Shown here: piece by piece, positions 2,709-62,371 of the stretch | Numbering within the stretch: position 1 is the stretch's first letter | Layout of the letters: every line of letters begins with the position of its first letter | Source: an uncultured Flavobacteriaceae bacterium | GTDB taxonomy: Bacteria; Bacteroidota; Bacteroidia; Flavobacteriales; Flavobacteriaceae | NCBI GenBank assembly: GCA_964631155.1 | Contig: CAZVYO010000011.1 | Coordinates: 7,591-71,590 of the forward strand | Length of the DNA: 64,000 bases | Direction of reading: 5' to 3' | Made by a program: the position numbers and the translations under genes | The notes under the pieces: model-generated | Told to the model about the DNA's origin: nothing | The model's database searches: none | Seen by the model: the letters and a program-made list of their open reading frames with translations, nothing else

Positions 2709-4585
2709 GTCAAGCTTTAAACATACTGAGAAAAGTATTTGGGCATAGTCAATTCAGGCCCCAGCAGGAAGAGATCATCACAACAGTTATGGAAGATCGT
2801 GATGTTCTCGCCATTCTACCCACGGGTGGCGGAAAATCGCTCTGCTACCAGATTCCAGCATTGTGTAAAGAGGGAATCTGCATTGTGGTTTCTCCTCTCA
2901 TCGCTTTGATCAACGATCAAGTAACCCAATTGCAAAAGCGCAACGTACGAGCTGTTGGGATCACTTCTGGAATTTCAAGACAAGACCTTGATACCGTACT
3001 GGATAACTGTATCTATGGCAACTATAAATTTTTATATCTAAGTCCGGAACGTCTGGAGCAGCCGCTAGTCCAAGAGCGCATTGCGCGCATGAAAGTGAAT
3101 CTGCTCGCGGTGGATGAAGCGCATTGTATAAGTGAGTGGGGACACGATTTTAGGCCGGCCTACCTCAAAATCAATGAGATTTTCAGCTTTATAAAGAAAG
3201 CGCCGGTTATCGCAGTTACAGCAACAGCAACTTCTAAGGTGCAGGTAGATATAACGGGAAATCTCAATTTCAAAAATCCTGTGGTCTTCACCACGTCTTT
3301 TGAGCGACCTCAACTAGAATATGATCTGCAAGATACTACCGACAAGAGAAGCGCCTTGATTGATTTTTATAATAAATCGCAAGGATCTTCCATTGCTTAT
3401 GTGCGCAGTCGGAAGAATACGGCAGAGTTCAGCCAGCTTTTATCTCATAACAACATCTCATCTGGTGCGTATCACGGTGGGTTAGATCCCAAGAAAAGAA
3501 AGGATCAAGTCACAAGGTGGTTAGAAAACCGTACCCGGGTAATGGTTGCTACAAATGCCTTCGGTATGGGAATCGATAAGGCCGATGTACGCAGCGTAGT
3601 TCACCTACAGCTACCAGACAGCATTGAAAGTTACTACCAGGAAACGGGCCGTGCCGGTCGGGATGGTAAAACAGGCATTGCGAAGTTTATCTATAACGAG
3701 AACGATGTGACCCATGCGCGCAATCAGTTCATCAGAGCACTACCTACGGTAGATATTCTCAAAAAAACATATCGGCACCTGAGCAATTATCTACGCATCG
3801 CTTACGGAGAGGGTCAGGAGCATCCTTATCAACTTCCATTTGCAGACTTTTGTCGCACCTATGACTTAAATGGGATCATTACCTACAATGCATTGACAGC
3901 GCTGGATCGTTTTAATGTGATATCGCTGGATCAGAGTTACGGTAATCGATCTGTGGTACGCTTTCGCGAAAGCGGAACAAAAATCATGGACTTTACCAGT
4001 CACGATCAGGTGGCACATGCTGTAGTGCAAGCGATTTTGAGAAGCTACGGAAGCAGCCGTGAACAGAATCTTCAAATCAATTCAAAACTGATTGCCGTAA
4101 GAAGTAACACGACAGAAAAACAGGTGACAGAGGTACTGAAGCAACTGCACCAGCGGGAGCTGATCTACGCTCGTATCACGGGAACCGATCTGACGCTTCA
4201 TTACCTACAGCCGCGGGAAGATGACCGTACGGTCAACCGTTTTGCCAGGGAATTAGAGCGGTACAATGATATTAAAATTCAAAAGCTCGAGGCGATGATC
4301 GCCCTATTGGATTATCATCAATGTGTGGAGCGAGGAATTTTATCCTATTTTGGTGAACAGCTTAAAAATGACTGTGGCAGGTGCACATTTTGCAGGAACA
4401 AAAAGCCTTCTGATATCAAAAAAGCGATCAAACTTTTGATTAGTCAAGGAGAAATCAGTCTGGATGAAGTCATTATCAGAATCCCTGCGCCAAAAACTGA
4501 AATACTTACAGCTCTGCGAAAACTTACTGACGATGGTATAATCCTTAATATTGCAGGCAAAGCTTTTAGAATCAATGAAGGATAA
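2705..4585 (+). CDS. recQ: RecQ-family ATP-dependent DNA helicase
   Basis: Motifs PTGGGKSLCYQ, VDEAHCISEWGHDFRPAY, ATNAFGMGIDK, YYQETGRAGRDG and Zn-binding C..C..C. Conserved N-terminal residues (FGHSQFRPQQEEII) lie upstream of the first ATG at 2789, so the start is placed tentatively at ATA 2705. Confidence 0.9.
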   Translation: MGQALNILRKVFGHSQFRPQQEEIITTVMEDRDVLAILPTGGGKSLCYQIPALCKEGICIVVSPLIALINDQVTQLQKRNVRAVGITSGISRQDLDTVLDNCIYGNYKFLYLSPERLEQPLVQERIARMKVNLLAVDEAHCISEWGHDFRPAYLKINEIFSFIKKAPVIAVTATATSKVQVDITGNLNFKNPVVFTTSFERPQLEYDLQDTTDKRSALIDFYNKSQGSSIAYVRSRKNTAEFSQLLSHNNISSGAYHGGLDPKKRKDQVTRWLENRTRVMVATNAFGMGIDKADVRSVVHLQLPDSIESYYQETGRAGRDGKTGIAKFIYNENDVTHARNQFIRALPTVDILKKTYRHLSNYLRIAYGEGQEHPYQLPFADFCRTYDLNGIITYNALTALDRFNVISLDQSYGNRSVVRFRESGTKIMDFTSHDQVAHAVVQAILRSYGSSREQNLQINSKLIAVRSNTTEKQVTEVLKQLHQRELIYARITGTDLTLHYLQPREDDRTVNRFARELERYNDIKIQKLEAMIALLDYHQCVERGILSYFGEQLKNDCGRCTFCRNKKPSDIKKAIKLLISQGEISLDEVIIRIPAPKTEILTALRKLTDDGIILNIAGKAFRINEG

Positions 4586-5531
4586 ATTGAAGATTGTATT
4601 TTTTGGCACACCAGAATTTGCCACTCATATATTAGACGGCATCGTGCAATCACATCACGAGGTTGTGGGAGTAGTTACCGTAGCAGATAAACCTGCTGGT
4701 CGTGGTAGAAAGCTACAGGAAAGTCACGTAAAGCAGTATGCCGTTGATGCTGGATTGAAAGTTTTACAGCCTAAAAATCTCAAAAAGGAGGATTTTACTG
4801 ATGAATTGAGAAGCCTAGGGGCCGATTTGTTTGTAATCGTAGCCTTTAGAATGTTGCCAAAAGCTGTATGGAACATGCCTGTACTGGGAACCTTCAACCT
4901 TCATGCGAGTCTATTACCACAGTATCGAGGGGCTGCACCCATCAACTGGGCAGTAATCAATCAAGAACTAAAGTCTGGTGTCACGACATTTTTTATAGAC
5001 GATAAGATCGACACGGGCGCCATGATCTTGCAAAATGAGTGTCCCCTAGAGCCAAAAGAAACAGCAGGCTCTCTTTATGAAAAACTCATGCAGTTGGGAC
5101 GTAAGCTCACTCTGGAAACCATTGATATTATCGCTGATGGAAATGTGGAGACCCAAATACAAACGGACCACGGTAATTTAAAAGATGCGCCTAAGTTGAC
5201 AGCCGAAAATATCAGAATCGATTTTGACAAATCTGCCCATGAAGTAGATGCTATGGTAAGAGGTCTTTTCCCTTTTCCTATTGCAAAAGCAATACTGTCA
5301 AATGAAGGCGAGAAGCTACAGATCAAAATCTTTGAGACTTCCATTGTTGATAAACCTCATAAAATGCAACCTGGAAGTATCGTTTTGAAAAATAAGGAAA
5401 TTATGGTGGCTTGCTCCCAAGGCTTTGTGGTACTAGAAAAGTTGCAGCTACCTAATAAAAAGGCCATGGATGCCAAAAGTTTATTGAACGGCTTCAGCTT
5501 TTCCGCTGATGCTAGATTTGATCAAGGATAG
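4575..5531 (+). CDS. fmt: Methionyl-tRNA formyltransferase
   Basis: IVFFGTPEFA, DKPAGRG, FNLHASLLPQYRGAAPINWA, DTG motifs. Confidence 0.95.
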   Translation: MKDKLKIVFFGTPEFATHILDGIVQSHHEVVGVVTVADKPAGRGRKLQESHVKQYAVDAGLKVLQPKNLKKEDFTDELRSLGADLFVIVAFRMLPKAVWNMPVLGTFNLHASLLPQYRGAAPINWAVINQELKSGVTTFFIDDKIDTGAMILQNECPLEPKETAGSLYEKLMQLGRKLTLETIDIIADGNVETQIQTDHGNLKDAPKLTAENIRIDFDKSAHEVDAMVRGLFPFPIAKAILSNEGEKLQIKIFETSIVDKPHKMQPGSIVLKNKEIMVACSQGFVVLEKLQLPNKKAMDAKSLLNGFSFSADARFDQG

Positions 5532-5684
5532 GCAGAAACTCCTAGTTTTTACGGTGAGTTATTAACAAAATGTTATATTTGTTAACATTAGTGGGAGAAA
5601 AGCTGTTGATTTCTTGTGCAGTATAAGAATCCGCATAAATTTGTTACCACGTTTTAGTTGAACTAATTAATTAACAATCTTATT

Positions 5685-61078: not shown

Positions 61079-61468
61079 ATGGCCCTAAAACTTCGTTTGA
61101 AAACATTCTATACGACCTTACTTCTAGCAACCATACTGCTTTTCCAAAGCTGTGGTGCCTATTATAAATCAAGTATCCCCATCGATGAAGCCGTCCAACG
61201 CAGTAAAAAAGTAAAAGTCACTACCAGAGATGGCGACACTTTCAAATTAAGAAGAATTGAACTAGAGGGAGATCAGTATTACGGAATAAGAAAATCAGGG
61301 AAACGCGTTGAACTCGATGCTGGTCAACTTGCGAGGATCAGGCCGTTCAATACAAAAAAGGCCATTGTTCTGAATGTTCTATTAGCAGGCACAATAGTCA
61401 TGACGATCCTTACAGTAGTCGTTTTTCAGGGAGTTGCGAAAGCTGCTGGAGAACTAAGTACGCCGTGA
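61079..61468 (+). CDS. Hypothetical lipoprotein/membrane protein
   Basis: LFQSC lipobox, C-terminal hydrophobic segment. Confidence 0.6.
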   Translation: MALKLRLKTFYTTLLLATILLFQSCGAYYKSSIPIDEAVQRSKKVKVTTRDGDTFKLRRIELEGDQYYGIRKSGKRVELDAGQLARIRPFNTKKAIVLNVLLAGTIVMTILTVVVFQGVAKAAGELSTP

Positions 61469-61513
61469 TAGTAGTCTTGCGTTCAACTTTCCAAATGATC
61501 GAGATCTCCTGCT

Positions 61514-62371
61514 TTATTTTAACGGTATCACCTTATACCCCTCATTCCTGAGTAGGTTAATCACGCCGTTCTCACCACCTAGATGTGCAGCCCCAACTCC
61601 TACAAACCTTGAGCCGGCCGCAAATTGCTCATTGAGGACGGGAATCCAGCTTTTGTTGCGGTTGTCTAACATGCTTGTGATCATCTCCTGATCACCGTCG
61701 TAGTACTCTTGGGTCATCTTATAGATCTTATCTGGATTCCCTTCCAGGTATAGCTCAAGCATTTTATCAAAGAGTTTCTGCATCTCATCGCTTTCTTGAA
61801 TATACTCTACGATTTCGTCGGCTTGTTCTTCAAGGGTTTGTGCATTTATTGCATCAAATTGGTCCTGGACGCTTTCCAGTCCCAGAATTTCCTTTTTCTG
61901 CGCACCTGCCATTTGTATAAAAGTTGCCTCATAGCTGGCAATCTGTTTTCCCATAAATGTGGGCAAGAGCATGGCATTGATGGCAAACGGCTTCATGGTG
62001 TTGAACGCGGCGAGGTTCATGCCCAGTTTTTTAGTCAGCACACTATCAATCATCGTGCGCTCTTCTTCTGTGAACAATTCTGAAAGGGTCGAGCCATCCG
62101 TAAACATCAGTTCCTTCATCATCGATCCTTGCAATCCTGGATCGTCCATGTCCAGTTCCAAAAGTATTTTTTCCGCTTTCGCGAAAGCGTCACTAACCGA
62201 CTCGCTCATTTTGAATTGATCCTGCGGCATCAAGTGAATCGTGCCAAAAAGATAGGATGTCTCCATTCCCGGCTTAGAAACTTGATAAAGCAGGCTATTG
62301 TCTTGAGCCGTTGCAGAAGTCAATACTACGAAGAATAGTACGAGAGATGATAAGTGGCCGTAAATTTTCAT
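61514..62371 (-). CDS. TraB/GumN family protein
   Basis: SYLFGTIHL, GLESV..Q, LDNRN..W, FVGVGAAHLGG..GVINLLR. Confidence 0.88.
   Translation of the reverse strand: MKIYGHLSSLVLFFVVLTSATAQDNSLLYQVSKPGMETSYLFGTIHLMPQDQFKMSESVSDAFAKAEKILLELDMDDPGLQGSMMKELMFTDGSTLSELFTEEERTMIDSVLTKKLGMNLAAFNTMKPFAINAMLLPTFMGKQIASYEATFIQMAGAQKKEILGLESVQDQFDAINAQTLEEQADEIVEYIQESDEMQKLFDKMLELYLEGNPDKIYKMTQEYYDGDQEMITSMLDNRNKSWIPVLNEQFAAGSRFVGVGAAHLGGENGVINLLRNEGYKVIPLK

Follow-up and report, generated by a model that had tools for sequence, protein, structure and literature searches.

The 64-kb stretch of Flavobacteriaceae DNA analysed here (contig CAZVYO010000011.1, positions 7,591 to 71,590; called the window below, always meaning the whole stretch) carries 12 exact copies of the 14-bp palindrome GCTTTCGCGAAAGC. 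By its MenD, which is 85% identical to N. spongiae MenD, the window is a piece of a Nonlabens genome close to N. spongiae. The palindrome (the motif) is enriched at the DNA level in a narrow clade, has been written into genes by substitution, is conserved site by site, carries extended flanks, is evenly spaced and occurs in some phages. It is very probably a selected DNA signal that is read by a protein.

The exact 14-mers start at positions 3960, 10458, 12910, 18737, 20249, 22902, 29023, 33181, 35748, 42940, 53379 and 62175. Ten of the 12 belong to the full 16-mer CGCTTTCGCGAAAGCG, and in the other two (22901 and 42939) the 16-mer ends in A. No copy was obtained when the window was shuffled with dinucleotides preserved. 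Long open reading frames (ORFs) contain 11 of the 12 copies, which are read as RFRES in three genes (RecQ-like, SPFH/Band 7 and a 173-aa SRPBCC-like protein), as AFAKA in five (SLT, MenD, S9 peptidase, a prokaryotic Argonaute (pAgo) and a TraB/PrgY/GumN-family protein) and as LSRK in three (MenF, cryptochrome/photolyase and DUF3987-PriCT2). A preceding sequence-only reading had given the same coordinates, counts and reading frames (12 copies, 11 in genes), and all of these were reproduced; its label 'TraB' was wrong, in that the gene belongs to the TraB/PrgY/GumN family and is not conjugative TraB. Three near copies with up to two mismatches lie at 15475, 41869 and 45760. The two that had been placed in a genomic island were found there, and the third (15475), outside the island, had been missed.

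Synonymous codons of the window ORFs were shuffled within each gene, with proteins and codon usage held fixed. The shuffles yielded 0.11 copies on average (maximum 2 in 2000) against 11 observed, and the enrichment thus survived the codon-preserving test that had been set beforehand as the refuting one. The encoded peptides are about 300-fold over-represented in the window (RFRES 3 against 0.009 expected, AFAKA 6 against 0.018), and nearly all their occurrences are encoded by the motif itself. Since codon-fixed shuffles give about 0.11 copies and the peptides are themselves in excess, the DNA word imposes the amino acids, not the reverse.

One genome per GTDB species (596 Gb) was scanned for the 16-mer, and at least 118 stretches matched. 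Among the matches listed, about nine in ten belong to Dokdonia, Nonlabens (including strain BBFL7) and Flavobacteriaceae metagenome-assembled genomes (MAGs), often with several per genome and dispersed along complete chromosomes; the rest are single matches in unrelated taxa, as chance predicts for 596 Gb. Density was taken from loci that had not been selected for the motif, namely syntenic stretches reached via MenD (unbiased loci). In six Nonlabens genomes (N. spongiae, N. xiamenensis, N. dokdonensis, N. agnitus and two MAGs) these carry 0.14-0.28 copies per kb, and no exact copy was present in 87 kb from Gelidibacter, Winogradskyella, Mesonia and Flavisericum. The motif is seen across Nonlabens and Dokdonia genomes and is thus not restricted to the window or to a single assembly; this clade-wide occurrence, together with an enrichment independent of codon and peptide usage, agrees with the genome-wide DNA-level signal proposed from the sequence. 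None of four cross-genus comparisons of orthologous sites between Dokdonia and Nonlabens was shared, a small sample which suggests that each genus built up its sites on its own.

Between 10 and 31 kb the window has six sites, and N. spongiae, at about 85% nucleotide identity, has every one of them exact, against a neutral expectation of about 0.6 of the six. The spacer copy (10457..10472) is kept in N. spongiae and in a related MAG. Sites remain exact with the surrounding protein just 37-65% identical: the RecQ-like site is exact in a Nonlabens MAG ortholog (locus L061) whose aligned fragment of about 165 aa is 51.5% identical, and five species have an exact MenF site, with aligned fragments of about 200 aa that are 37-79% identical (37-47% for the distant ones). 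At the MenD site the DNA is exact in seven species, and AFAKA is retained in 55 of 69 Nonlabens-type MenD orthologs (56-100% identity), with adjacent residues varying freely. MenD proteins of other genera have unrelated, variable peptides at this position.

The MenF site also shows how a copy comes about. All seven of the compared orthologs retain KVVLSR there. In N. dokdonensis and N. agnitus this position reads CTGTCTCGTGTGGA and CTCTCTTTAAAGCA, without an indel; both species encode the same KVVLS by other codons, and the residues that follow differ. What separates species with the motif from those without is mostly which synonymous codons are used for L-S-R, along with changes in the two next residues. 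At the sites compared, presence and absence are separated by at least six substitutions and never by an insertion, and the MenF, pAgo, phage protease and phage gp20-like sites are all free of indels. The earlier claim that the motif is written into genes by substitution is confirmed at these sites, and by these alignments copies arise through in-frame substitution, not insertion.

In 831 kb of loci, 156 perfect 16-mers (about one per locus being owed to ascertainment), 41 one-mismatch and 17 two-mismatch copies were counted. Among the one-mismatch copies, 31 of 41 have the change at the outermost base, and the strict core is therefore the 14-mer. TCGCGA was counted 91 times outside the motif (100 expected), CGCG is likewise unenriched there, and isolated half-sites are just about 2-fold enriched; the unit is the whole palindrome.

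The flanks of the window copies show no sequence relatedness to one another, as the sequence-only reading had said, but they bear a strong compositional signature. GCG is followed by any base, then by A (72%), then by A or C. G, whose background share is 19%, makes up 1-8% at positions +4 to +7, 17% at +8 and otherwise 4-13% as far as about +19, and the opposite flank is the mirror image, seen as C depletion. This G-poor flank is present in intergenic copies, in coding copies of either orientation and any frame, and in phage copies. The sequence adjoining GCG depends on the genus, with GTA in Dokdonia and GGAA or GAGA in Nonlabens. An extended hairpin or cruciform was considered and rejected: left and right flanks are as complementary as shuffled left/right pairs, real contexts fold no better than chimeric ones, and the single-strand hairpin of the core is weak (-4.3 kcal/mol). 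The absence of flank pairing and the weak hairpin favour a site that would be read as duplex DNA by a symmetric protein.

For placement, 203 copies were classed by position, and those not in an ORF of at least 60 aa were counted as outside. About one third of the 203 lie outside ORFs, in about 9% of the sequence (a 3.6-fold intergenic enrichment), and about 67% lie inside. Intergenic copies are often lengthened to GTACGC...GCGTAC and occur in all orientation classes of the flanking genes (++ 19, -- 25, -+ 10, +- 8), so that the motif is neither a terminator nor a promoter element. Inside genes the AFAKA frame is used by 76 copies, against 31 and 29 for the other two frames.

Copies also avoid one another. 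In tests made mostly on motif-selected loci and conditioned on copy number per locus, only 3 pairs were less than 1 kb apart (26 expected) and 8 nearest-neighbour gaps were shorter than 1.5 kb (34 expected), with the mode and the excess at 2-3 kb. In the unbiased loci, from which the density and retention results were also taken, the coefficient of variation of the gaps was 0.50 against 0.91, and the smallest gap was 1.5 kb against a median expectation of 124 bp. Only one close pair was seen, in a Nonlabens MAG (locus L097, 5296-5399), as an exception to this exclusion zone of about 1.5 kb; its two copies stand 88 bp from each other, downstream of a TonB-dependent-receptor-like gene. Recombination breakpoints showed no visible link to motif sites in a three-way alignment at 250-bp resolution, which had too little power. 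A conservation profile drawn around shared sites was left out of the evidence, because related phage contigs made up most of its pairs.

Phages show a split pattern. The IMG/VR contigs that carry several copies come from HK97-type siphophages, relatives of Cellulophaga phage phi39:1 (loci L150, L134, L137, L138, L145, L149, L147 and L133), a family with genomes of about 30 kb and a GC content of 0.36-0.44. They carry their own DnaB-type replication gene, no integrase in the contig parts examined, and 0.1-0.2 copies per kb. No host is recorded for them, and Dokdonia or Nonlabens hosts are presumed, as their motif content suggests. Lineages just 46-56% identical share two conserved sites, one in the prohead protease and the other in a 99-aa protein; phage phi39:1 itself has no copy and has other residues at both sites, without indels. 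The cultured Nonlabens phages P12024S and P12024L hold no copy in 35.7 kb (P about 8e-4 at host density). In their whole genomes (L170 and L171) TCGCGA is absent (about 3.7 expected) and CGCG occurs 9-10 times (about 35 expected), unlike in the host, where both words, outside the motif, occur about as often as expected. Genes for DNA methyltransferases are present in both phages, and P12024L has one for a 2OG-Fe dioxygenase as well. Restriction-site logic was rejected as an explanation of the motif, because in hosts TCGCGA and CGCG are neither avoided nor enriched outside it.

A sharp, long palindrome with flank rules, conserved sites, placement limited by tolerance and mutual exclusion argues for a site that is read by a protein and maintained by selection or drive. 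The reading favoured here, to which a probability of roughly 0.45 is given, is that of a duplex recognition site acting as a kilobase-scale tag of self DNA. The site would consist of the GCTTTCGCGAAAGC core, usually within CGC...GCG, and of symmetric flanks (GCG, any base, A, then A or C, followed by some 15-20 nt almost free of G on the 3' side of each strand). It would be recognised by a sequence-specific host protein, most likely a dimer, common to Nonlabens, Dokdonia and close relatives. One copy per 2-10 kb would suffice, and a second copy nearby would add nothing. The machinery served would be one that handles kilobase-long pieces of DNA, as in uptake and recombination during transformation, the role of the uptake signal sequences (USS) and DNA uptake sequences (DUS) and, by recent data, of HIP1 (for highly iterated palindrome 1); alternatively, the site may exert Chi-like control over a DNA-end-processing nuclease. 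Copies would arise by point substitution wherever the peptide (AFAKA oftener than RFRES or LSRK) or a spacer tolerates them, and would then be held exact by selection or by an uptake-type drive. The retention of the motif in phi39:1-like phages leans towards the Chi-like or self-tag form.

A more specific proposal is made tentatively, namely that Nonlabens and Dokdonia possess a hitherto unrecognised self-DNA recognition system, in which a palindromic tag with strand-asymmetric flanks and its dimeric reader would gate a kilobase-scale DNA transaction. That transaction may be uptake and recombination, or protection from an end-processing nuclease or a defence pathway, and the tag would be strong enough to rewrite proteins and to be mimicked by some phages.

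Several points weigh against the self-DNA tag. The strand-asymmetric G-poor flank is explained by no known duplex-binding mode. No cognate protein was found, and no gene of the window is an obvious candidate. To our knowledge, natural competence is undocumented for Nonlabens or Dokdonia. USS/DUS and Chi are short and asymmetric, and USS/DUS are about five times denser. Phages P12024S and P12024L do without the motif, so that the tag is not needed by every phage, and the non-integrating phi39:1-like phages keep it, though an uptake-type drive should not act there. Finally, most loci were chosen for containing the motif, which biases some counts, and the pair-distance and nearest-gap tests draw mostly on such loci.

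A dimeric protein could also use the sites to anchor or compact the chromosome at regular intervals. The motif would then be bound by a nucleoid-organising protein (ParB/Noc/KorB-like or another dimeric nucleoid-associated protein), and sites would be selected for chromosome architecture, not for uptake or recombination. A perfect palindrome of 14-16 bp has the general shape of parS, Noc-binding sites and KorB operators, as is established, and even spacing with short-range exclusion, conservation of sites in genes and spacers, and the dispersal of the listed matches around complete chromosomes are all in keeping with such a role. The periodicity of HIP1 has been interpreted in this way (PMC5861425). 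We nevertheless regard this explanation as unlikely. At 0.14-0.28 copies per kb and about 3.2 Mb, some 450-900 sites are extrapolated per genome, about ten times any known ParB, Noc, MatP or SlmA set, and an architectural role does not predict that non-integrating phi39:1-like phages should keep the motif. By inspection, the sequence fails to match parS (3 of 8 positions per half-site), and no candidate protein was found; that the motif is not parS had been stated from the sequence, and it does differ from the consensus TGTTTCACGTGAAACA.

Were the sites functionless, they could be a neutral by-product of methylation-linked or biased repair, as in Elhai's HIP model, with a methyltransferase to mark the inner TCGCGA or CGCG and a mismatch-specific nickase to turn near-motifs into the motif. 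The CpG-rich centre, the presence of the motif in islands and some phages, and the position of single mismatches (31 of 41 at the outermost base, mostly C to T, as in HIP1; PMC4390886) would suit this model. However, a specificity of 14-22 bp plus flanks is well above that of known very-short-patch-type repair, the inner hexamer and tetramer are unenriched alone, a site-autonomous bias cannot make copies exclude one another over about 1.5 kb, and no copies are present in two phages that replicate in Nonlabens. The model is improbable on these grounds. Among the candidate functions of the sequence-only reading, the new data are hardest to reconcile with a purely repair-driven one, because of the short-range repulsion, the whole-palindrome unit and the absence of the motif from a resident virulent phage.

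Spread as a selfish element, of the repetitive extragenic palindrome (REP)/REPIN type or as a miniature inverted-repeat transposable element (MITE) mobilised by a RAYT-type (Y1/HUH) transposase that recognises a hairpin, would account for a highly abundant clade-specific palindrome and for the 3.6-fold intergenic enrichment, often as GTACGC...GCGTAC. This idea is largely refuted and has very little probability left. Two thirds of the copies lie in frame within genes whose length equals that of orthologs without the motif, and insertion-type elements are excluded because copies are in frame and indel-free. The flanks are unrelated, the hairpin is weak, and copies are single, unpaired and mutually avoiding; genes bracketed by two intergenic copies are ordinary (patatin, MscS, SSF transporter, TonB-type receptor and similar). 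A transcript-level element (terminator, attenuator or RNase site) or a favoured peptide motif is refuted by the frame and orientation data, for although the palindrome can form a 6-9-bp stem and many copies sit in short spacers, all gene-orientation classes are used (divergent spacers included), the motif is followed by A-rich and not T-rich sequence, true terminators stand beside it and not within, three frames are used on either strand, the peptides are encoded almost only by the motif, and no Rfam match was found.

The window copies outside the island lie as follows. The exact 16-mer at 3959..3974 is read as RFRES in a RecQ-like helicase ORF (2789-4585, +). The DEAD domain of this protein begins at residue 2 and its RecQ zinc-binding domain covers residues 478-536; the real start may be upstream, or the N-terminus may be short. 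The sole copy outside a long ORF (exact 16-mer, 10457..10472) occupies the spacer upstream of an M49 peptidase gene (8311-10374, -). A 61-codon ORF (10411-10596, -) spans it and reads SGTLSRKRNI. This ORF can be aligned in the two nearest relatives and is unlikely to be a gene. In the SPFH/Band 7 ORF (12768-13919, +) the exact 16-mer at 12909..12924 is read as RFRES, and its flanks lengthen the palindrome to TACGC...GCGTA. Between a TPR gene and this SPFH gene stand two + strand tRNA genes (12048-12120 and 12284-12359), the second right at the Rfam threshold; an Rfam search of the window found two tRNAs and no other family. The near copy CTCTTTCGCGGAAGCG, with two mismatches, is at 15475..15490 in an ORF on the minus strand (15115-15822).

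AFAKA is encoded by exact 16-mers in an SLT transglycosylase ORF (18736..18751; ORF 18616-19557, -) and in MenD (20248..20263; 20140-21819, -). The MenF/isochorismate synthase copy (22901..22916; 22231-23277, -) is an exact 14-mer core whose 16-mer ends in A, and it overlaps KVVLSR. Further exact 16-mers are read as RFRES in the 173-aa SRPBCC-like ORF (29022..29037; 28608-29129, +) and as LSRKR in a cryptochrome/photolyase-family ORF (33180..33195; 31823-33319, +). The latter is one of two photolyase/cryptochrome-family genes (441 and 498 aa; 29826-33319) on either side of a 229-aa ORF without a Pfam match, and the same layout is found in a Nonlabens MAG (locus L164). The exact 16-mer at 35747..35762 places AFAKA at residue 14 of an S9 peptidase (33365-35803, -), in a segment (...VLAFAKAYSQ...) that in our reading resembles a signal peptide. 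The last one (62174..62189), again AFAKA, lies in the TraB/PrgY/GumN-family ORF (61514-62380, -).

The remaining copies belong to an integrase-borne defence island that adjoins mnmE (37447-57610). Its genes include HTH_17 excisionase-like genes, DUF6617, a BT4734-like plus DUF3987/PriCT-2 primase, a reverse transcriptase (43423-45060, -), an XRE regulator, a type I/IIG methylase with S subunit, RhuM, a 692-aa protein with a cytidine-deaminase domain, pAgo, a UvrD-like helicase and a 377-aa protein. The same element stands at the same mnmE site in Mesonia sediminis (79% nucleotide identity; locus L168, 5821-21734), and a related one with partly different cargo (an MmeI-type enzyme and Abi_2) was found in Flavisericum labens (locus L175, 1-12112). 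The island has two copies in 20.6 kb against ten in 43.4 kb elsewhere, a difference that is not significant.

The pAgo gene (52617-54737, +) carries an exact 16-mer at 53378..53393, read as AFAKA. Its roughly 60 closest homologs (up to 76% identity) have IF-PFK[NT]D-x-FIDVP at this place, and only this lineage has IF-AFAKA-EFIDVP, in frame; by this alignment the copy is a derived in-frame change of PFKND to AFAKA. The DUF3987 gene (41681-43417, +) carries an exact core at 42939..42954 (LSRKQ; its 16-mer ends in A), where the Mesonia element has CGG for CGA, a synonymous variant with one mismatch. The claim that the motif has already reached island cargo therefore stands for pAgo, whereas the DUF3987 copy pre-exists in Mesonia as a one-mismatch near copy. 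The near copy CGCTTTCGCGGAAGCT (41869..41884, one core mismatch) is read as AFAEA in the island DUF3987/PriCT-2 gene; most homologs have ALAEE there, and the Mesonia copy is two mismatches off. The other near copy, CGCTTTTGCGAAAGCT (45760..45775), is read as AFAKA in an XRE-type HTH ORF (45593-45907, +). The pAgo gene is also part of a three-gene block (50467-56467), whose products may be effectors associated with pAgo: a 692-aa protein whose C-terminal domain is a dCMP/cytidine deaminase, the 706-aa pAgo, in which Pfam finds the Piwi domain only, and the UvrD-like helicase, which overlaps the end of the pAgo gene.

Only rarely has a DNA-handling machine reshaped whole genomes and even proteins, and genome-wide iterated motifs such as HIP1, USS/DUS and Chi are among these cases. 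HIP1 has been unexplained for 30 years, and the present motif is an independent example from another phylum, in culturable marine bacteria. A long, sharply defined motif makes an easy bait, and its flank rules, its exclusion zone and the phages with and without it give a tractable route to the reader protein. If the self-DNA tag is correct, it would be the first self-DNA recognition system of such a kind in Bacteroidota and the first palindromic equivalent of USS/DUS or Chi open to dissection in strains that can be cultured. It would also be a likely handle for better genetic transformation of Nonlabens and Dokdonia, which are rhodopsin model organisms, and in metagenomes the motif is usable as a taxonomic or host-assignment marker for DNA, islands and phages of Nonlabens and Dokdonia. 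A literature search found no paper printing TTTCGCGAAA in a relevant context and none linking Nonlabens or Dokdonia with palindromes, and the genome papers on these genera mention no such repeat. Relative to the sequence-only reading, the flank information, the mutual avoidance of copies and the split phage pattern are new.

Among known systems, parS, Noc sites and KorB operators of the ParB family are likewise perfect palindromes (13-16 bp), dimer-bound, often in genes and selected at the DNA level; binding is predicted here. The motif differs from parS in sequence, in number (hundreds per genome against 4-70) and in being dispersed, with no origin clustering as far as the listed matches show. 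REP/REPIN and Rickettsia palindromic elements (RPEs) share its lineage-specific abundance as palindromic repeats, and RPEs also occur within genes. However, REPs are extragenic and RAYT-mobilised whereas the motif is mostly in ORFs, and RPEs are in-frame insertions of about 100-150 bp, whereas alignments across the motif are ungapped and show no longer element body, which sets it apart from MITEs as well. Its earlier likening to HIP1 and uptake sequences rather than to intergenic REPs was apt, with 11 of 12 window copies in ORFs.

Chi (RecBCD/AddAB) resembles the motif in density (about one per 5 kb), as a self tag of which one site per several kilobases is sufficient, and in that phages can acquire such a site by point mutation under selection. 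From RecBCD biology, the GT-rich 5' flank of each strand would correspond to the strand left as a RecA-loaded 3' tail. Chi is, however, 5-8 nt long, asymmetric, read in single strands, replication-oriented and few-fold over-represented, whereas the motif is a perfect palindrome of 14-16 bp, over-represented more than 10^4-fold. The USS of Pasteurellaceae and the DUS of Neisseriaceae share, as is established (Mell and Redfield 2014, cited in PMC7965970), the extreme over-representation of a long family- or genus-specific motif, its writing into genes by substitution with tolerant frames and spacers preferred, the extended biased flank, the even spacing and the cross-species conservation. The competent flavobacterium Riemerella columbina favours its own DNA with no known uptake signal (PMC7965970). 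Unlike USS/DUS, the motif is palindromic and about five times less dense, no receptor is known for it, and it reaches near-host density in non-integrating phages, which an uptake drive fails to predict.

The HIP1 sequence GCGATCGC and the alternate HIPs of cyanobacteria are, like the motif, hyper-abundant clade-specific palindromes that occur in coding and non-coding DNA in all frames. Their orthologous positions are conserved beyond neutral expectation, with non-random, quasi-periodic spacing (PMC5861425), and their single-base variants are biased to the outermost positions (PMC4390886); function is still unproven in both cases (PMC5861425, PMC4390886). HIP1 was recently reported to raise transformation efficiency, possibly in a Chi-like manner (bioRxiv 10.1101/2024.09.10.611283), and its sites co-vary with DNA-transfer genes (bioRxiv 10.64898/2026.06.24.733823). 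HIP1 has 8 bp and up to one copy per gene, against a 14-16-bp core with flank signatures of about 20 nt and about one copy per 5 kb for the motif. The motif also has another sequence and belongs to Bacteroidota, so that it is not HIP1 proper; its inner short palindromes are not enriched on their own, its copies clearly exclude one another over about 1.5 kb, and it has no known linked methyltransferase. HIP1, USS/DUS and Chi are the closest known phenomena, the over-representation and the flanks recalling uptake sequences and the phage data recalling Chi. The motif is HIP- and USS-like in behaviour yet longer and palindromic, and no earlier description combines its flank asymmetry, its exclusion zone and its split phage pattern.

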